Assembly: GCA_035288565.1 (NCBI GenBank)
Contig: DATDZZ010000076.1
Span: 1 to 10,296, forward strand
Source: an archaeon
GTDB lineage: Archaea > Iainarchaeota > Iainarchaeia > Iainarchaeales > DATDZZ01
Direction of reading: 5' to 3'
Length of the DNA: 10,296 bases
Position 1 is the stretch's first letter; every line of letters begins with the position of its first letter. Of this stretch, positions 1 to 10,296 are shown piece after piece. Made by a program: the position numbers and the translations under genes. A model generated the notes under the pieces. The model saw nothing but the letters and a program-made list of their open reading frames with translations, was not told the DNA's origin and did no database searches.

Positions 1-630
1 GGAGGCTTTGTAATGGTGGGGGTAATTTTAGGAACCCAAGTGAAGATGACTTCCTCAAAGCAGACTCCAAAGCTCTTAATTGACAATGCAGGAAAAAAAG
101 TGGCTCCTTTTGCTGAAGCCACCGGTGCAAGAGCAGGCTCCCTGCTTGGTGATGTGCGTCACGATCCGTTGCAATCGTTCATTGACGAAAGCAACTTCGC
201 TGTATTTTTAGACAATGAGTGGAAGAAGTTTTCTTTTGAAGAGCTTTGGAATTTAATGTCTGAAAGGCACCCTGATCTCATTGAAAAACACGAAAAAGGA
301 TATGAATCAATTTATTTCCCTGATGAGGAAAAAATTTATACTTATGGCAGTGATGAAAAAGGCAATGTTGTGAGAACAAGAATCTATTTGATTAACAGGA
401 GGCCTTACAAAGATAAAGTAATTAAGATCAAAACAAAGGATGCCTCCATAACACTTACTCCTGAGCATGAAGTTTTTACAGAATTTGAAAGCAAGAAGGT
501 ATTAGATATTTCAAATAAAGACAAAGCCCTCAGCTTGAAAATTAAGCATGGCCAAAATGATAGTGAAGAATTAAAGTTGCAAAAAAAGAAATTACCTCAA
601 GACATTCAAACTGTTTCTTCTTCATTTTAA
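1..630 (+). CDS. lonB: Archaeal LonB protease, N-terminal fragment (5'-partial, frame open to window start). It is fused to an N-terminal intein half and stops with TAA at 628-630.
   Basis: The translation ...KLLIDNAGKKVAPFAEATGARAGSLLGDVRHDPLQ matches the conserved LonB AAA+ segment that precedes the HDPFQ|SGGLGTPAH motif. After Q54 the sequence switches to an intein-like sequence (SFIDES...ITLTPEHEVFT). The same frame (frame 1) resumes LonB in the ORF at 1741. Confidence 0.85.
   Translation, partial: GGFVMVGVILGTQVKMTSSKQTPKLLIDNAGKKVAPFAEATGARAGSLLGDVRHDPLQSFIDESNFAVFLDNEWKKFSFEELWNLMSERHPDLIEKHEKGYESIYFPDEEKIYTYGSDEKGNVVRTRIYLINRRPYKDKVIKIKTKDASITLTPEHEVFTEFESKKVLDISNKDKALSLKIKHGQNDSEELKLQKKKLPQDIQTVSSSF
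175..627 (+). other. N-terminal intein splicing half (IntN, ~151 aa): Ser1, block A (SFIDESNFAVFL), block B (ITLTPEHEVFT), plus a ~45-aa tail.
   Basis: The extein motif DPLQ is interrupted exactly where LonB homologues read DPFQSGG. Block A-like and block B (TxxH) motifs are present. The ORF then ends, and no endonuclease or C-terminal blocks follow in this frame. Confidence 0.75.
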
Positions 631-649
631 GTAAATTGCAGGTTACTAA

Positions 650-667
650 TTTTTTTGTTTTTACTTT
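650..667 (+). terminator. Oligo-T tract (TTTTTTTGTTTTTACTTT) just after the stop of the LonB-N/IntN ORF. Likely archaeal terminator.
   Basis: Archaeal termination occurs at oligo-dT runs. A T7+T5 run begins 20 nt after the TAA. Confidence 0.45.
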
Positions 668-694
668 GAGGGGAAATCTGCTCTTTCCAAATTG

Positions 695-704
695 CTTTAA
701 ATTT
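695..704 (+). promoter_or_regulatory. TATA-like box (CTTTAAATTT), centred ~26 nt upstream of the HEG ATG at 726. Consistent with a leaderless transcript.
   Basis: AT-rich TATA-like element at the canonical archaeal spacing from the start codon. No Shine-Dalgarno motif in between. Confidence 0.4.
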
Positions 705-725
705 GAAAAATCAATTTTTTAATTG

Positions 726-1685
726 ATGATATTAGTAACAGATCAAGACATTGTTAATACATATTCCCATTATGACAGGCTTTCGTGTCAAAAATATTTA
801 GAATATTTAAAACTAGTAAAAGAGAACCCTTCGTTTGGCTATAAGCGTTGTTCAAAGATTTTGGGCATTCCTATGGGGAGATGCAGGTGGTGGCATACAA
901 AAAGATCCAAAAGAGGAAAGCCTTTGCCTTTGAAAACAGTTGACAAATTAAAGGAAGCAGGTTTTCTTCCCTTTAAATCAAATCACAGATATGCTGAAAG
1001 TATTTTTAGAATTTATGGGACATTATTAGGTGATGGGGGAATTGATTGCAGATTAAATACGATGTCGTTTATTTCTTCAGTCAAAGAAAATGTTGATTTA
1101 TGGGTAGAAGATTTAGTCAAAATTTTTCCTTTTATAAAAGAAAAAATAAATTTACGAGAGGGCGGAGAATATGGCCATTCTTATTGTATGCGGACTTATG
1201 ACAGGGCGGTAATAAGGTTTTTTGTGGCTTTGGGTGTCCCGGTTGGCGATAAGATGATAGTTCATTATTCTATTCCCGCTTATTTTAAAAATTTAAATAA
1301 AATAAATGTGAAAAGTTTCTTAGACGGTTTGTTTTCAAGTGAAATAGCCATTCCCAGAGCTGTTATTTCAAGAAAAACAAATTTTTTTAAAAATTTTAGT
1401 TTTAGCTTAGGGAAAACTATTGCTCTTGAGAAAGACCATTTAATATTTTTAAAAGACATTCAAAGGCTGACAGAAAATTTAGGAGTTAAATTCACCCCCA
1501 ATCTTAGAAAAGACGCAAATCATAAAAGAAAAAGAAAGGATGGAAAAGAATCTAATGGATGCAGAATTTTTTTTAGGTCAGGAATTCCAAACGTGTTAGA
1601 ATTTCAAAAGTTATTTCCATTAAAATATAGTGCTGAAAAGAAATTAAAATTTGATGAAGAAATTAAGAAAGCATTAAGCAATTAG
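726..1685 (+). CDS. Free-standing two-motif LAGLIDADG homing endonuclease with an N-terminal HTH-like extension.
   Basis: LAGLIDADG motif 1: IFRIYGTLLGDGGI, with the catalytic Asp in place. Motif 2: KSFLDGLFSSEIAI, with a catalytic Glu in place. The N-terminal segment CSKILGIPMGRCRWWHTKRSKRG resembles transposase/resolvase-type HTH (..LGIs..tvyrW..). The frame (frame 3) differs from the flanking lonB pieces. The first in-frame ATG is at 726, and the track's 723 is a TTG. Confidence 0.85.
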   Translation: MILVTDQDIVNTYSHYDRLSCQKYLEYLKLVKENPSFGYKRCSKILGIPMGRCRWWHTKRSKRGKPLPLKTVDKLKEAGFLPFKSNHRYAESIFRIYGTLLGDGGIDCRLNTMSFISSVKENVDLWVEDLVKIFPFIKEKINLREGGEYGHSYCMRTYDRAVIRFFVALGVPVGDKMIVHYSIPAYFKNLNKINVKSFLDGLFSSEIAIPRAVISRKTNFFKNFSFSLGKTIALEKDHLIFLKDIQRLTENLGVKFTPNLRKDANHKRKRKDGKESNGCRIFFRSGIPNVLEFQKLFPLKYSAEKKLKFDEEIKKALSN

Positions 1686-1703
1686 TTTTTAGTTTAAGTT
1701 TTT
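1686..1703 (+). terminator. T-rich tract (TTTTTAGTTTAAGTTTTT) directly after the HEG stop.
   Basis: Oligo-T runs immediately 3' of the TAG at 1683-1685. Confidence 0.35.
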
Positions 1704-1709
1704 ACATAC

Positions 1710-1719
1710 TTTTATATAT
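1710..1719 (+). promoter_or_regulatory. TATA-like box (TTTTATATAT), ~27 nt upstream of the ATG at 1741. Leaderless-type promoter for the IntC-LonB C-fragment.
   Basis: A strong TATA-like element at canonical spacing. An in-frame TAG at 1690-1692 lies upstream, so translation must initiate at 1741. Confidence 0.45.
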
Positions 1720-1740
1720 TTCACATATTCATATCTAATT

Positions 1741-1857
1741 ATGAAAATAATTAAAAGTAAGGTGGAAGAAAAAAAACAGTTAGACTATAATGGTTTTGTT
1801 TATAATGTCACAACTGAAACAGGAAATTTGTTCGTTGAAGATATTTTAGTTAGCAAT
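1741..1857 (+). other. C-terminal intein half (IntC, 39 aa): [39 protein letters not shown]. Blocks F/G. Terminal Asn followed by +1 Ser.
   Basis: Block F-like ([13 protein letters not shown]) and block G (ILVSN|S) motifs are present. The penultimate residue is Ser, not the usual His. It is followed immediately by SGGLGTPAH, which completes the LonB motif interrupted at 174. Confidence 0.75.
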
Positions 1858-3156
1858 TCAGGAGGGCTCGGAACTCCCGCACATCTAAGAGTTGAACCGG
1901 GTTTAATTCACAGAGTTAACGGCGGAGTTCTTTTCCTGGATGAAATTGCTACTCTTTCAATGAAGGCTCAGCAGGAACTTCTTACTGCAATGCAGGAAAA
2001 AAAATATGCAATTACCGGCCAGAGTGAAATGAGTTCAGGCGCTTTAACTAGAACTGAAGCAGTGCCATGCGATTTTGTTTTAGTGGCTGCAGGAAATTAT
2101 GAGGACTTGGAGAAAGTTCATCCGGCTTTAAGAAGCAGAATAAGAGGCTACGGATATGAAATTCATATGAATGCTGACATGGATGATTCAATTGAAAACA
2201 GGGAAAAAATTGTTCAGTTCATTGCACAGGAAGTTGTAAAGGACGGAAAGATTCCTCATTTCGGCAGGGAAGCAGCTGAATTAATTGTTTTCGAGGCAAG
2301 AAGAAGAGCTCAAAGAAAAAATAAGCTGACTTTAAAGCTGAGGGATTTAGGCGGGCTAATAAGAGCAAGCGGTGACATCGCAAAAGAAAAAAGCCATGCA
2401 ATTGTTGAGCCTCAGGATGTTTATGAAGCTAAAATGAATGCAAGGACTTTAGAGCAGCAAATGGTTGGAAAGATTATTGAAAATAAAAGAGACTATGATG
2501 TTTACTTGACTGAAGGTTCTGCTATTGGAAGAGTTAATGGCTTGGCTGTTTCAGGAGACGGGGACGCTGGAATGATTCTTCCGATTGAAGCAGAAATTGC
2601 GCCGGCAGCTTCTCAAAGCGAGGGAAAAATTATTGCAACAGGAAAGCTGGGAGAGATTGCAAAGGAAGCAGTTCAGAATGTTTCAGCTTTAATTAAAAAG
2701 CTTTCAGGCAAGGACATTTCAAAGCACGATCTTCACATTCAGTTTCTTCAGACTTATTCAGGAGTTGAAGGGGATTCCGCAAGCGTTTCAGTTGCAACAG
2801 CAGTAATTTCTGCGTTGGAAGGCATTCCAATAAAGCAGAGCCTTGCAATGACTGGCTCTTTAAGTGTGAGAGGAGAGGTTCTTCCTGTGGGTGGAGTGAC
2901 AAGCAAAGTTCAGGCAGCAATTAAAGCAGGCTTCAAGGAAGTAATTGTGCCTAAATCAAATTTAGAGGACATTATTCTTGAAAAAAATGAGTTAAGCAAA
3001 ATTAAAGTAATTCCTGCTTCTTCTTTAAGCGAAGTAATTGAAAACTCTTTTGTTAAAAGCGAAAAAAGAAACAGGCTTTTAAGGAGCTTAAAAAAATTCA
3101 TTAAAATAAGGGTTCCGAAAGTACTGGAAGCAGCAGGAAAAAAAACCCTGATTTAG
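1741..3156 (+). CDS. lonB: IntC plus the LonB protease C-terminal fragment (AAA+ Walker B through the Ser-Lys protease domain).
   Basis: After IntC: [34 protein letters not shown] (Walker B) ... [11 protein letters not shown] ... [13 protein letters not shown] ... [15 protein letters not shown] ... [29 protein letters not shown] (catalytic Ser/Lys region). It matches Thermococcales LonB closely along the whole length. Confidence 0.9.
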
Positions 3157-6470: not shown

Positions 6471-6950
6471 ATGAATAAACAGAGATTTGTTGTTCCAGGA
6501 GAATTTTTGACTGTTGCAGAAGAATTTTCTGCAGGAAAAAACACCTGGGAGGACGAAAAAGGAAATGTTTTTTCTTCTGCTTCCGGTTCATGCAATTTCA
6601 ATAAAGAAGAATATGAAGTGAGTGTTGATTCAAGCAAGACAATTTCATTGATTGACAAAGGATCAATTATTACAGGCCAAGTTGTTTTAGTCAAGTCATC
6701 AATTGCAATAGTTGAAATCTTTCATGCAGAAAAGGATTCACAGCCAAGGATTCTGAATGAAGGCAGAGGAGTAATCGGGGTATCAAATGCAAGCCCTAGA
6801 TATGTAAAGTCAATGGAAGACGAATTCAAAGTCGGCGACATTGTGAGAGCAGAAGTTTTGTTTGTTGAAAAAGGAAATGTAGAGCTTACAACTAAATTCA
6901 ATGGATTGGGAGTAATAAAAAAAAGATCTGCTTTTGTGAAAAGCTTTTGA
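6471..6950 (+). CDS. csl4: Exosome complex RNA-binding subunit Csl4-like (N-terminal domain plus S1 domain, no C-terminal Zn-ribbon cysteines).
   Basis: MNKQRFVVPGEFLTVAEEFSAGKNTWEDEKGNVFSSASG... matches the FVLPGDxLxxxEEFxxGxGTYxxxGxIYSAxxG opening of archaeal Csl4. The S1-like core is ...GQVVLVKSSIAIVEI...GDIVRAEVLFVE. It sits immediately upstream of rpoL, as in the conserved archaeal csl4-rpoL arrangement. ATG 6471 is preferred over the TTG at 6462. Confidence 0.6.
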   Translation: MNKQRFVVPGEFLTVAEEFSAGKNTWEDEKGNVFSSASGSCNFNKEEYEVSVDSSKTISLIDKGSIITGQVVLVKSSIAIVEIFHAEKDSQPRILNEGRGVIGVSNASPRYVKSMEDEFKVGDIVRAEVLFVEKGNVELTTKFNGLGVIKKRSAFVKSF

Positions 6951-6959
6951 GGTGAATTA

Positions 6960-7235
6960 ATGAAAATAACAGTTACGAAAAAAGAAAGCAATTTGCTTGA
7001 ATTTACTTTAAAGGGAGAAAGGCACACTTTCGCCAATCTGCTGAAAACCAGGCTGGTAATGGATGCAGATGTTGATTTCGTGTCATATAAATTAAAATAT
7101 CCTTTAGATGATGAAGCAGAATTTGTCTTGAAAACAAAGAAAAAGGATCCAAAAAAAGTCCTGCTTGACGCATGCACTGCAATTCAGGATGAATTAAGCG
7201 ACTTTGAAAGCAAAATAAAAAAAGCAATCAAGTAA
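6960..7235 (+). CDS. rpoL: DNA-directed RNA polymerase subunit L (Rpo11).
   Basis: MKITVTKKESNLLEFTLKGERHTFANLLKTRLVMDADVDFVSYKLKYPLDDEAEFVLKT matches the conserved EDHTLxNLLRxxLxxDPxVxFAGYxxPHPL core of Rpo11. A GAGGTGA RBS lies 6 nt upstream, overlapping the csl4 stop. Confidence 0.82.
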   Translation: MKITVTKKESNLLEFTLKGERHTFANLLKTRLVMDADVDFVSYKLKYPLDDEAEFVLKTKKKDPKKVLLDACTAIQDELSDFESKIKKAIK

Positions 7236-7281: not shown

Positions 7282-8151
7282 ATGTTTATAAAATCTTTCA
7301 ATGTGATTTCTTCAATGAAGCTTCTTAATTCATTTTACGAAAAAATTGTTTCAAAAAAAATCAGAAAAACAGTTAATGAAATAAAATTCAGGCTCAGATG
7401 GCTGGATCCATTCACTTACGTTGACTTGTTCTTGATGCCCAGAATTAATCCGAATAAAAACAAAAGCATTGAATCAATTGTATACCTTATTAGTGCATTG
7501 GTTTTTGCATTCCTTTTATACAATTTGCTTGGCCTGCTTTTCAGCACTCAGACTCCTTTAGTGATTGTTGTATCAGATTCAATGGTTCCGAACATGTTTA
7601 GAGGAGATGTAATTGTTTTAATTGGGTCAACAGGGCCTGCAGTCAATGCAGATGAAATTAACTTAAATGAAAATATTGAAGGAAAGTTTTTCTCTGAATT
7701 CGCTTCAGTTCAATATTATTCTTCAGATAAATTCAATGAAGAGATTTCCAAAATTGTTTTCAGTTCAGGTGAAGAGCTTTTAATTCCAAGAGAATCAGGA
7801 AACGATGCAATTGTTTACACTGAGCAGAGAAGAGGAATTCAAATAATTCACAGAGTTATTGCAAAAATTAAAAGCAGCGGCAAGTATTATTTTTTAACTA
7901 AAGGAGACAATAACCCAACAATGGATCAGGACTGCGGGCAGGTAAAAAATGTATTTATTCCTGGAACAGATGTCAAGGCAATTGCTTCAGAAAAGCAGTG
8001 CATTTCTCTCTACCCCATTCTGGAAAATAAAGTTGACGGAAAAGCTGTTTTAAGGATTCCTTTAATCGGCTTCATTAAACTGCTTTTAATTGACGATCCC
8101 CTGCAGATATTGGGAGGGTGCCTTCAAAAAAACAACTGCAGACTACCATGA
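7282..8151 (+). CDS. Archaeal-type signal peptidase I (S26B/Sec11-like). Start codon uncertain: alternative ATGs at 7315 and 7435.
   Basis: TM anchor IVYLISALVFAFLLYNLLGLLF. Box B: VVSDSMVPNMFRGDVIVL, with the catalytic Ser. The catalytic His is in IQIIHRVIA. The archaeal/eukaryal GDNN box is TKGDNNPTMDQD. A TTTATAAAA element at 7285-7293 could be a TATA box for a leaderless start at 7315. Confidence 0.78.
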   Translation: MFIKSFNVISSMKLLNSFYEKIVSKKIRKTVNEIKFRLRWLDPFTYVDLFLMPRINPNKNKSIESIVYLISALVFAFLLYNLLGLLFSTQTPLVIVVSDSMVPNMFRGDVIVLIGSTGPAVNADEINLNENIEGKFFSEFASVQYYSSDKFNEEISKIVFSSGEELLIPRESGNDAIVYTEQRRGIQIIHRVIAKIKSSGKYYFLTKGDNNPTMDQDCGQVKNVFIPGTDVKAIASEKQCISLYPILENKVDGKAVLRIPLIGFIKLLLIDDPLQILGGCLQKNNCRLP

Positions 8152-8188: not shown

Positions 8189-8938
8189 ATGGTTAAATTA
8201 ATTTTAGATGACGCCCAGGAATTCAAGAAAGCTGTTGACGCTGTCTCTGTTTTAATTGATGAAGCCGAATTCATTGTTGATGAAAAAAGATTCGCTTTAA
8301 AGGCAACTGATCCAAGCCAGATCTCAATGGTTGACTTTGAATTGGATAAAAAAGCCTTCAAAAGCTATGAAGTAAAAAAGCCGACAAAAATCGGATTAGA
8401 TTTAAGCTATTTAAGCCAGGTAATGGGCAGAAGCAAAGCAAAAGAATCTCTTACAATAGAATTGGATGAAAAAGACTCAAGATTAAATATTACTTTTGAA
8501 GGCAATGCCAAAAGAAAATTTTCAATTCCGTTGCTTGACTTAAGCTCAACAGAGCTTCCTAACCCGAAAATTAATTTTGATGCAGAAATTAAAATGAATG
8601 CAGGCCTTCTTCAGGATGCATTGAAAGACGCTTCACTGATTTCAAATCACTTGACTTTAGGGGTTACAAGCGATTCATTTTTTGTGAATGCAAGTTCAAG
8701 CAAAGGAGAACTAAACAATGTTTCTCAGAAAAATGATTCAGATTTAAAGAAGCTTGAAGTAAAAAACGAGTGCAGTGCAATGTATCCATTGGACTTCCTT
8801 TCAGACATGCTTAAAGCGGCTTCTTCTTCGGATGAAATAGATTTATTTCTTAAAACAGATGCTCCAATAAAAATTTCCTACAAAATAGGCAGGGCGCAGA
8901 TTATCTACTTTTTGGCTCCAAGAATAGAGACAAGCTGA
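8189..8938 (+). CDS. pcn: DNA polymerase sliding clamp PCNA (paralog 1).
   Basis: MVKLILDDAQEFKKAVDAVSVLIDEAEFIVDEKRFALKATDPSQISMVDFELDKKAFKSYEV... and the C-terminal ...IIYFLAPRIETS are colinear with archaeal PCNA (ATDPSxV, LAPR motifs). A GGTGA RBS lies 5 nt upstream of ATG 8189. The track ORF from 8090 is an N-terminal over-extension overlapping the peptidase gene. Confidence 0.9.
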   Translation: MVKLILDDAQEFKKAVDAVSVLIDEAEFIVDEKRFALKATDPSQISMVDFELDKKAFKSYEVKKPTKIGLDLSYLSQVMGRSKAKESLTIELDEKDSRLNITFEGNAKRKFSIPLLDLSSTELPNPKINFDAEIKMNAGLLQDALKDASLISNHLTLGVTSDSFFVNASSSKGELNNVSQKNDSDLKKLEVKNECSAMYPLDFLSDMLKAASSSDEIDLFLKTDAPIKISYKIGRAQIIYFLAPRIETS

Positions 8939-8982
8939 CTCGAATTCAATTCAATTCTCAGAATCAGGATTTACTTATTATG

Positions 8983-9183
8983 GCCAGGTATTGAGCTTCA
9001 GCGAAGATCGTGTGTTTTCGCCAACCTTTTCTTAAAAGGTTGCAGGATCGAGCGCAAGCGAAGATCGTGCTTCGGTTCACTCGCTCGAAAGCGAGTAAGT
9101 GGACGAGGAGGGAGCCGCAAGATAAACATCTTTGAGGCCTTACCACCCTGGCTCCCCTCTGAACCGTCATTTGAAACGGTCTG
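8983..9183. ncRNA. GC-rich, hairpin-dense island in an AT-rich genome. Possible structured ncRNA or repeat element of unknown class, strand undetermined.
   Basis: A sharp local GC rise. Perfect hairpins: CAACCTTTT-CTT-AAAAGGTTG (9021-9043), CGAAG-atcgtg-CTTCG, CTCGC-tcgaaa-GCGAG, a long-range GGGAGCC (9110-9116)/GGCTCCC (9149-9155) stem, and ACCGT-catttgaa-ACGGT. An internal 13-nt direct repeat AGCGAAGATCGTG occurs at 9000-9012 and 9057-9069. No tRNA T-loop/cloverleaf was detectable. Confidence 0.3.
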
Positions 9184-9237
9184 ATTAAATTATTGAATAA
9201 ATGTTTAAATTTGTTTCTTTTACGCATTTACGTCATA

Positions 9238-9267
9238 TTTCTTTTTTTTTAAAGGGTTTTTTTGCTT
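9238..9267 (+). terminator. Oligo-T terminator (TTTCTTTTTTTTTAAAGGGTTTTTTTG).
   Basis: T9 and T7 runs downstream of PCNA1 and the GC-rich island. Likely ends the + strand transcript(s). Confidence 0.5.
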
Positions 9268-9395
9268 TGATTAATGAAAAAAAAGAAAAATAGCCAGTGA
9301 GCTGGTTTTAGATTCAAGAATTTCAGATAACCGGATAAAGCCAGATTTCTTTGAATTAAAAGAATAAGTTAAAAAACTTCAAAGAAATTAATTTA

Positions 9396-10127
9396 ATGGG
9401 GATAAACTTGATTGAATTAAAGCGAGCAATGTTGTGGCAGAAAGTAATTGCATCAATTTCTTCTTTGATAAGTGAAGGAAATTTAAGGTTCTCAGATAAA
9501 GGGATTGGCTTCAAGGCAATTGATCCAAGCCAAATAGTTTTAGTTGATTTCTTTTTAGATAAAAAGAATTTCGAAAAATATGAAGTAGAGCCTTCTCTTA
9601 TCGGAGTGGATTTAGCTGAATTAAATAAAATAATGCAGAGAGCTTCAACTGAAGACAGGCTTTCAATGGAGTTAAGCGAAAGCGAGCTAAACTTGAATCT
9701 GGAAGGAGACCTTTCAAGGCACTTCAAACTTCCATTAATTGACTTAAATGAAGATGAAATTAAAATCCCTGAAGCAAGCTTTGAAGCAAAAATTGAAGTG
9801 AATGCAAGAAACCTGAAAGAAGCATTAAAGGACGCAGCCTTATTCGGCTCAAGCATTATATTAAAAGTTTCAAAAGGAAAATTAATGCTTGAAGCAAGAG
9901 GAAGCCAAGGACAGTTAAAAACAATTGTTAAAGGGGCAAAAGCATCTGTTGCAGGAAAAGACGAAATAGTTTCCAAGTATTCATTGAATTACTTAATCAA
10001 TATCTTGAAAGAAGCTGAAAACGAAAAAAAAGTTTTCCTTGAAATAAAATCTGATTCTCCAATAAAAGTTTCCTATAATTTAGGGGAAAGCACAATCCAG
10101 TTCCACCTTGCGCATATGATCATTTAA
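9396..10127 (+). CDS. Second, divergent PCNA sliding-clamp paralog.
   Basis: MGINLIELKRAMLWQKVIASISSLISEGNLRFSDKGIGFKAIDPSQIVLVDFFLDKKNFEKYEV... is colinear with PCNA1 over the full length (roughly 35-40% identity by eye). Shared blocks: IDPSQ, FxLPLIDL, LKDAxL. The C-terminus ...FHLAHMII replaces the usual LAPR/K motif. Confidence 0.85.
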   Translation: MGINLIELKRAMLWQKVIASISSLISEGNLRFSDKGIGFKAIDPSQIVLVDFFLDKKNFEKYEVEPSLIGVDLAELNKIMQRASTEDRLSMELSESELNLNLEGDLSRHFKLPLIDLNEDEIKIPEASFEAKIEVNARNLKEALKDAALFGSSIILKVSKGKLMLEARGSQGQLKTIVKGAKASVAGKDEIVSKYSLNYLINILKEAENEKKVFLEIKSDSPIKVSYNLGESTIQFHLAHMII

Positions 10128-10296
10128 GCCGCCGTCCAGCCGGCGAGTCTGGGTACACGTATTTCGCTTCGCTCAATACGTGGAGTGCATAGTGCCTAAC
10201 TCACGCAAAAGATTCCGCTCGCCGTCCCGTCCGCCGTCCAGCCGGCGCAACCTTTAATAAAGGTTGGCGAAAAGCACTGCATTAAGCAGTGCAAGC
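10128..10296. repeat. Second GC-rich hairpin-rich element, related to the 8983-9183 island. It runs to the window edge.
   Basis: Direct repeat CCGCCGTCCAGCCGGCG at 10129-10146 and 10232-10249. Hairpins CACGTATT-tcgcttcgctc-AATACGTG (10157-10183), CAACCTTT-aat-AAAGGTTG (10249-10267) followed by GGCGAAAAG, and GCACTGC-attaa-GCAGTGC. The CAACCTTT..AAAGGTTG+GGCGAAAA module and the GTATTGAGC..GCGAA module both recur in the first island in inverted orientation. Confidence 0.4.

Follow-up and report, generated by a model that had tools for sequence, protein, structure and literature searches.

Why should an archaeon from a phylum of small genomes keep two sliding-clamp genes side by side? The question is raised by a 10,296-nucleotide stretch of DNA from the Iainarchaeota (GenBank assembly GCA_035288565.1, contig DATDZZ010000076.1, forward strand; hereafter the window), which is identical in sequence to contig k141_343188 of ENA record ERZ27254752 and has near-identical counterparts among contigs from the Rifle aquifer sample ANAN16-1. 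Two PCNA homologues lie in it:

Positions 8189..8938, plus strand: PCNA1, a canonical sliding-clamp gene of 249 aa with the C-terminus YFLAPRIETS, identified from Pfam, PDB relatives and orthologues.
Positions 9396..10127, plus strand: PCNA2, a divergent sliding-clamp paralogue with the C-terminus FHLAHMII, 243 aa long from the ATG at 9396 or 239 aa from the TTG at 9408.

We conclude, with a probability of about 0.8, that the two genes form an ancient pair of tandem paralogues, passed on vertically, which arose by duplication in place before the radiation of the Iainarchaeota, and that PCNA2 is a functional, specialised clamp subunit. This reading builds on the paralogy, age, synteny and intactness of the genes, on the fold of their products and on family-specific residue changes, from which we infer an altered partner specificity.

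The original prediction, made from the letters of the window, had proposed two diverged full-length PCNA homologues in tandem on one strand, 457 nt apart, and open reading frames, Pfam matches and sequence identity all agree with it. Against curated cut-offs of 20.3 and 23 bits for the two PCNA domains (PF00705 and PF02747), PCNA1 scored 57.4 and 40.5 bits for PCNA_N and PCNA_C, and PCNA2 scored 53.7 and 39.0 bits, all above threshold; the two proteins share 37% identity over 241 residues (E 4e-53). For both, the nearest solved structures are Thermococcales PCNAs, which PCNA1 matches over its full length in phmmer searches (~155 bits). The AlphaFold2 model of PCNA2 (predicted local distance difference test, 87.7; predicted template-modelling score, 0.83) aligned in Foldseek with Thermococcus and Pyrococcus PCNA at template-modelling scores of 0.88-0.91 and a root-mean-square deviation of ~2 A, and PCNA2 is accordingly modelled with the two-domain, pseudo-symmetric beta-alpha-beta clamp fold. 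Its FHLAHMII C-terminus, rightly singled out before as lacking the LAPR/K motif, is a substitution of LAPRIE(TS) that is two residues shorter rather than a large truncation. The intergenic spacer (8939-9395) measures 457 nt, or 469 nt if translation starts at TTG 9408, which may be the actual start because orthologues begin M-IELK and the NCBI call is 239 aa. Public records already annotate both genes as PCNA.

The expectation that a DPANN genome carries a single PCNA, from which the original prediction set out, fails for the Iainarchaeota, which carry the pair as a rule. A scan that took one genome for each GTDB species gave 80 loci, essentially all from Iainarchaeota and including two complete genomes, AR10 (CP010424) and CP064981; taxon labels of relatives are those given by their depositors. 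Pairing was scored with hidden Markov models (HMMs) of both families, with flanks limited to 6 kb. Of the 80 loci, 56 have PCNA1 5' of PCNA2 and on the same strand, as do 43 of the 48 for which, counted from the same survey, the full 6-kb upstream flank is present; both PCNAs also occur in all six further loci that we inspected. Orthologues of each protein form more than 100 clusters, at 55-70% identity for PCNA1, found in Iainarchaeota, and at 50-66% for PCNA2, and the named ones of either family are labelled Diapherotrites, Iainarchaeum or 'archaeon'. The C-termini are characteristic of each family, all PCNA2 orthologues ending in LAHM[IL][LI] with an immediate stop and all PCNA1 orthologues in LAPRIE followed by 0-3 residues. 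An exhaustive search of representatives also recovered a more divergent PCNA2-type subclade, with the C-termini LAQMIL, LAHIML and LAPILL.

The gene order around the pair is conserved and runs DUF373, Band7, SpoIIM, Csl4, RpoL, a signal-peptidase-like gene, PCNA1, PCNA2, PriL, PriS, GINS51, S27e, eIF2alpha and PAC2, with PriL directly 3' of PCNA2 in 73 of the 80 loci. An archaeal PCNA-PriS-Gins15 (PPsG) cluster with S27E, aIF-2alpha and Nop10 was described by Berthon, Cortez and Forterre in 2008 (PMC2643942). The Iainarchaeotal locus resembles it in that PCNA is followed by primase subunits, GINS51, S27e, aIF2alpha (and Nop10) and PAC2, and differs from it in that two tandem paralogues hold the PCNA slot, the divergent PCNA2 adjoining the primase. 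Judged from this gene order, the pair is a tandem duplication inside the known cluster, with the PCNA slot doubled. Three genomes of the divergent subclade keep the order PCNA1, PCNA2, primase, GINS, S27e and eIF2alpha (Nop10), with only 1-5 nt between the PCNA genes, and because this subclade retains the same PCNA1-PCNA2-primase order, the duplication predates the diversification of the sampled phylum. In the divergent subclade the gene between PCNA2 and PriS matches Pfam PriX and not DNA_primase_lrg (L109, 8820-9686; L111, 6726-7544; L112, 6702-7529), and Nop10 is found after eIF2alpha.

Both families have been conserved to a similar degree. Across 52 species pairs, mean pairwise identity is 0.586 for PCNA1 and 0.572 for PCNA2, with a correlation of r 0.77 between the two, and within single genomes PCNA1 and PCNA2 are 0.29-0.41 identical. 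The PCNA2 family has 41 invariant residues across 24 sequences.

To map functional sites, both families were aligned to a Thermococcales PCNA and to human PCNA. Of the ring-interface residues (Pyrococcus numbering), R82 is retained at 100% in both families and R109 at 100% in PCNA1 and 99% in PCNA2. In PCNA2 alone, K84 is changed to L/M and E139 to R/K, two positions that presumably belong to the intermolecular ion-pair network of Pyrococcus PCNA. Interface position 143 is D in 89% of PCNA1 and E in 100% of PCNA2 sequences, and D147 is present in 100% of both; the PDB titles of 1iz4, 1iz5 and 3a2f confirm D143 and D147 as mutant sites (D143A/D147A being monomer mutants). Positions that are conserved within each family and differ between the families concentrate at the partner-docking edge (human numbering):

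P253: P in PCNA1, H in PCNA2.
K254: R in PCNA1, M in PCNA2.
E256: E in PCNA1, L in PCNA2, where it is the last residue.
A208, in the Q pocket: P in PCNA1, S in PCNA2.
L47: M in PCNA1, L in PCNA2.
M40: T in PCNA1, I in PCNA2.

The C-terminal LAP[KR] motif and the tail line the groove that receives the PCNA-interacting peptide (PIP) box. PCNA1 carries this motif as LAPRIE, with P and R at 100%, and PCNA2 has LAHMIL and a stop in its place, with H at 98% and M at 100%, which lowers the case for canonical partner binding by PCNA2 but not the case for its PCNA fold. The interdomain connecting loop also differs: with a mean top-residue frequency of 0.81 (0.71 overall) it is the best conserved part of PCNA1, whereas in PCNA2 it falls below average, at 0.64 (0.73 overall).

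We propose that a PCNA gene would have been duplicated in place within the PCNA-primase-GINS-S27e-aIF2alpha cluster before the Iainarchaeota (Diapherotrites) radiated, and that purifying selection would have kept both copies since. PCNA1, with its LAPRIE tail and strongly conserved interdomain connecting loop, would act as the general docking platform. PCNA2 would still be a ring-competent subunit, as the PCNA fold and the interface residues R82, R109, D/E143 and D147 are retained, with a docking edge that appears rebuilt and more hydrophobic: P-R-x-E replaced by H-M-x-L, the acidic tail lost, Ser for Pro in the Q pocket, and a relaxed loop. With such an edge PCNA2 would bind fewer PIP-type partners than PCNA1, or other ones, which we consider most likely from the residue patterns. 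Given the constant position of PCNA2 next to PriL/PriS, primase or GINS can be named as a candidate client, as a matter of speculation.

Several observations weigh against an ancient duplication in place or against the roles proposed for the two copies. In five loci no PCNA1 is found nearby, although 6 kb of sequence upstream is available. The phylogeny, a distance-based neighbour-joining (NJ) tree of 160 PCNAs with 300 bootstraps, separates the two families, the PCNA1 family being monophyletic in 98% of bootstraps and placed with the canonical archaeal PCNAs; a single long-branched clade unites the PCNA2-type sequences with a bootstrap of only 61%, and a sister relationship of the families was recovered in 0 of the 300 bootstraps. 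Because the topology does not recover it, duplication in place rests on the tandem position and on mean distances, which place PCNA2-type proteins at 1.53 from the Iainarchaeotal PCNA1 family, their closest group, versus 1.92 from other PCNAs. Long-branch effects in the tree are likely, and the topology is most simply reconciled with tandem position and distance if PCNA2 diverged at an accelerated pace early on. The changes at K84 and E139 could equally mark a homotypic interface specific to PCNA2. The human and Pyrococcus functional-residue assignments, moreover, follow published structures and were carried over by alignment.

If the pair is an ancient tandem duplication, what rings do the two proteins form? 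The first answer to be weighed is that of two independent homotrimers, with PCNA1 and PCNA2 rings serving different enzymes (replication versus repair, or PolB versus PolD), as in T. kodakarensis, a serious possibility that we place a little short of even odds. In PCNA2 the ring interface is retained on both faces (R82, R109, E143 and D147), and the paired changes K84 to L/M and E139 to R/K could be a co-adapted PCNA2-PCNA2 contact. Distances between the two genes range from 18 nt to 5.4 kb across the phylum, and in most genomes the interval is 0.3-5 kb and holds unrelated genes, partly on the opposite strand, so that co-transcription of the pair is not conserved. On the other side, the shared interface residues leave no obvious barrier to mixing, in about 10 species, as in the divergent subclade, the two genes are immediate neighbours (1-150 nt apart), and the sole precedent for ancient, universally retained archaeal PCNA paralogues, that of the Crenarchaeota, is heteromeric (PMC3914693).

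The second answer, an obligate heteromeric ring (2:1 or 1:2) that would be an independent analogue of the crenarchaeal PCNA1/2/3 heterotrimer, we hold tentatively and at odds well under even. It is favoured by the retention of both genes across a phylum of small genomes, by their operon-like adjacency in several lineages, by partner-binding surfaces that differ while interface residues are shared, and by the correlated evolutionary rates of PCNA1 and PCNA2 (r 0.77). However, no specialisation of the interface that would enforce an order of subunits was seen, 84 and 139 being the only interface positions that differ, and a trimer made of two paralogues needs one homotypic contact anyway. The pair is like crenarchaeal PCNA1/2/3 (Sulfolobus, Aeropyrum, Metallosphaera) in that ancient PCNA paralogues are kept lineage-wide, and crenarchaeal PCNA subunits likewise differ in their partner-binding surfaces (PMC3914693; in part also PMC4894655). 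It is unlike that system in comprising two paralogues, in tandem and beside the primase, with interface residues shared rather than specialised, and in having arisen independently, in DPANN.

With interface residues in common and the genes frequently side by side, we lean slightly towards rings able to mix PCNA1 and PCNA2, so that the heteromeric clamp raised in the original prediction stays in play, a separate PCNA2 homotrimer being about equally likely. A fuller version of the mixed ring, namely a 2:1 heteromeric clamp evolved independently of those of Crenarchaeota and of the eukaryotic 9-1-1 complex, in which PCNA1 would provide canonical PIP docking and a dedicated partner, for instance primase or GINS, would bind the remodelled hydrophobic C-terminus of PCNA2, is in our estimate unlikely, if still worth stating.

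It had also been suggested that one copy may have been brought in by a virus or an integrated element. PCNA genes are indeed known cargo of archaeal mobile elements (PMC3914693), and PCNA2 has GC-rich repeats to either side in the window, so that its import might be supposed within a virus, a plasmid or an integrated element with GC-rich hairpins as its ends. This is very improbable, and the evidence refutes it: PCNA2 has the same position and core neighbours in more than 80 species that lack these repeats, the repeats also occur at many other intergenic sites, and the composition of the gene is host-like and matches that of its neighbours (G+C at third codon positions 0.316 for PCNA1 and 0.307 for PCNA2; correlation of codon usage with other genes, r 0.86 and 0.87). 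No close viral relatives were found: the best matches in a phage collection (tblastn) are halovirus PCNAs at 22-25% identity, a scan of IMG/VR returned no PCNA relative, and neither the window nor the longer sister contigs hold an integrase or viral genes. Thermococcus kodakarensis, with PCNA1 (TK0535) and PCNA2 (TK0582), is likewise a non-crenarchaeal archaeon with two PCNAs. TK0582, however, is part of the integrated element TKV3, is patchily distributed and can be dispensed with (PMC3914693), unlike the Iainarchaeotal pair, which is phylum-wide, syntenic and host-like in composition and has no mobile-element context. That one copy is a decaying pseudogene with disrupted motifs, or the pair a recent in-paralog duplication, can be dismissed even though PCNA2 lacks the canonical LAPR/K motif, because its reading frame is intact, its family is as conserved as that of PCNA1 and retains the 41 invariant residues in 24 orthologues, its model is confident, and the duplication, common to related genomes, is old, with a paralogue identity of merely 29-41% in every genome and a split that precedes the radiation.

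What, then, is the GC-rich DNA around PCNA2? It comprises the following features:

Positions 8985..9094, no strand assigned: GC-rich hairpin repeat array, variable between strains, from an alignment of 10 same-species contigs; its module 9014-9070 recurs elsewhere.
Positions 9095..9160, plus strand: conserved hairpin of 66 nt (GTAAGTRGACGAGG ... GRCTCCCCTCT), found upstream of PCNA2 in three species.
Positions 9162..9180, plus strand: small hairpin AACCGTcatttgaaACGGT, read from the sequence and present in both the minimum-free-energy and the centroid fold.
Positions 9181..9395, plus strand: AT-rich part of the spacer, 23% GC, with oligo-T tracts at ~9241-9250 and 9257-9263 and A/T-rich stretches before PCNA2.
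Positions 10128..10296, no strand assigned: second GC-rich hairpin repeat array, 57% GC, which runs off the contig end; its module 10130-10202 recurs.

The GC content is 51.5% in the spacer core (8985-9180), 23% in 9181-9395 and 57% in the 169 nt after PCNA2, with genes and genome at ~35%. The AT-rich region ahead of PCNA2 is thus present as predicted, and an archaeal terminator and the promoter of PCNA2 may both lie there. The GC-rich regions in the spacer and after PCNA2 fold into several hairpins (z -2.9 for both) and are mosaic. Among 10 contigs of the same species, segment 9006-9092 is replaced in other strains by a different hairpin of 31 nt, and these contigs also vary in the modules that make up the array after PCNA2. 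Elsewhere in the intergenic DNA of the same organism, single modules of 50-75 nt turn up again in either orientation at 94-100% identity, for example in the interval between two lactamase genes and in that between PAC2 and MazE. The 57-nt module at 9014-9070 has a 100% identical copy on the opposite strand of L002 (15426-15482), the module at 10130-10202 has copies at 94-97% identity at L007 111-164, at L002 13306-13375 and in L092, L103 and L104, and the repeat loci in these two contigs span L007 61-250 and L002 13281-13380 and 15371-15482. A metagenome scan with an 18-nt repeat core gave 18 matches, of which three are true copies and the rest chance matches in unrelated GC-rich contigs; the repeat-array sequences were not present in relatives. 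The window and several sister contigs end inside repeat arrays, and contigs L008-L010 break within the array at 8985-9094.

The two flanks of PCNA2 share an AACCTTT...AAAGGTT hairpin in opposite orientation (9020-9043 and 10248-10268). Related GC-rich hairpins do flank PCNA2, as had been noted, in the sense of shared repeat material; they are not a private bracketing pair or cassette boundary, the modules being dispersed genome-wide. The duplication has nothing to do with the GC-rich DNA around PCNA2 in this species, which consists of dispersed mosaic hairpin repeats inserted in intergenic spacers, plus the local 66-nt hairpin. The arrays are like bacterial repetitive extragenic palindromic sequences and bacterial interspersed mosaic elements (REP/BIME), and like the GC clusters of AT-rich yeast mitochondrial genomes: short GC-rich intergenic hairpins, in both orientations, mosaic, and present or absent by strain. 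They differ in having a DPANN host, and the likeness is one of description and not of sequence, with a copy number drawn from only ~45 kb. No associated transposase was seen with the repeat arrays.

The 66-nt hairpin stands apart from these arrays. It occurs at the same place in L011 (374-442) and L114 (870-927), in which PCNA2 is merely 64-66% identical, and pairing in its 11-bp stem stands at 88%, one change there, from C-G to U-A, being compensatory. A covariance model trained on the three species found no further copy in 88 other Iainarchaeotal loci. No Rfam family matches the hairpin, and Rfam, in gathering and E-value modes, and ARAGORN detected no RNA family or tRNA in or around the spacer. 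It may be a lineage-restricted small RNA or untranslated-region element; with three sequences, the case for a functional RNA is suggestive only.

Over the phylum, a conserved gene or RNA between the two PCNAs was considered and ruled out, since the gaps hold unrelated genes (RpiB-like, K-channel-like, membrane proteins). The spacer is a recurrent insertion site (L052, L053, L058, L060, L069, L075, L079 and others), with an RpiB-like gene on the opposite strand in several species and a K-channel-like or membrane-protein gene in others. On the other side of PCNA2, contigs of the same species disagree: a uL3-uL4-uL23 operon follows in L001/L007 and PriL-PriS-GINS51 follows in L002, the junction lying inside the repeat array. 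We doubt the PCNA2-uL3 join, because PriL follows PCNA2 in 73 of the 80 related species; it is probably a repeat-mediated (chimeric) misassembly or a strain rearrangement.

Upstream of PCNA1 the window contains the following neighbours:

Positions 6471-6950, plus strand: Csl4, from Pfam.
Positions 6960-7235, plus strand: RpoL, from Pfam.
Positions 7282-8151, plus strand: signal-peptidase-like gene of 289 aa, with the motifs SDSMVP...GD and KGDNN.

These three are syntenic in 34-46 of the 80 related loci. The 289-aa reading frame has no Pfam match; the gene adjoins PCNA1 upstream in 46 of the 80 loci, and its orthologue in L115 has a weak match to Peptidase_S26.

At the start of the window (13-3156, plus strand) LonB is fractured, as it is in L001/L007, L003, L004 and L005. 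Its N-terminal part (13-630) ends in ...GDVRHDPLQ|S and is followed by an intein-N-like extension of ~150 aa and a stop; a free-standing reading frame of 320 aa with LAGLIDADG-like motifs (723-1685, in another frame) lies between the LonB parts; and a third (1741-3156) opens with an intein-C-like leader of 38 aa (...ILVSN|SGGLGTPAH) and continues into the C-terminal part. A relative, L113, has an uninterrupted LonB of 618 aa, to which the break maps exactly at residue 209/210 (blastp). The arrangement resembles a split intein whose homing endonuclease is encoded by a gene of its own. Among the survey loci, L021, L042, L049 and L057 carry the Iainarchaeotal PCNA1-PCNA2-primase cluster in bins named Methanosarcinales, Chloroflexi/Chloroflexota and Falkowbacteria, likely through mis-binning or contamination of those metagenome-assembled genomes.

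Replisome surveys describe PCNA as essentially single-copy outside Crenarchaeota (PMC3914693; PMC12680538). We found no published description of the pair in the literature searched on PCNA in DPANN, Diapherotrites, Micrarchaeota and Iainarchaeum, although the tables of the 2025 survey (PMC12680538) may already count it. For the use of PCNA as a single-copy phylogenomic marker the pair poses a risk in Iainarchaeota, because the paralogues may be mixed. If true, a second PCNA throughout a phylum of genome-reduced DPANN archaea would be a second, independent case of clamp subfunctionalisation, and the pair would offer a simple two-gene system for how homotrimeric clamps turn heteromeric or specialised.

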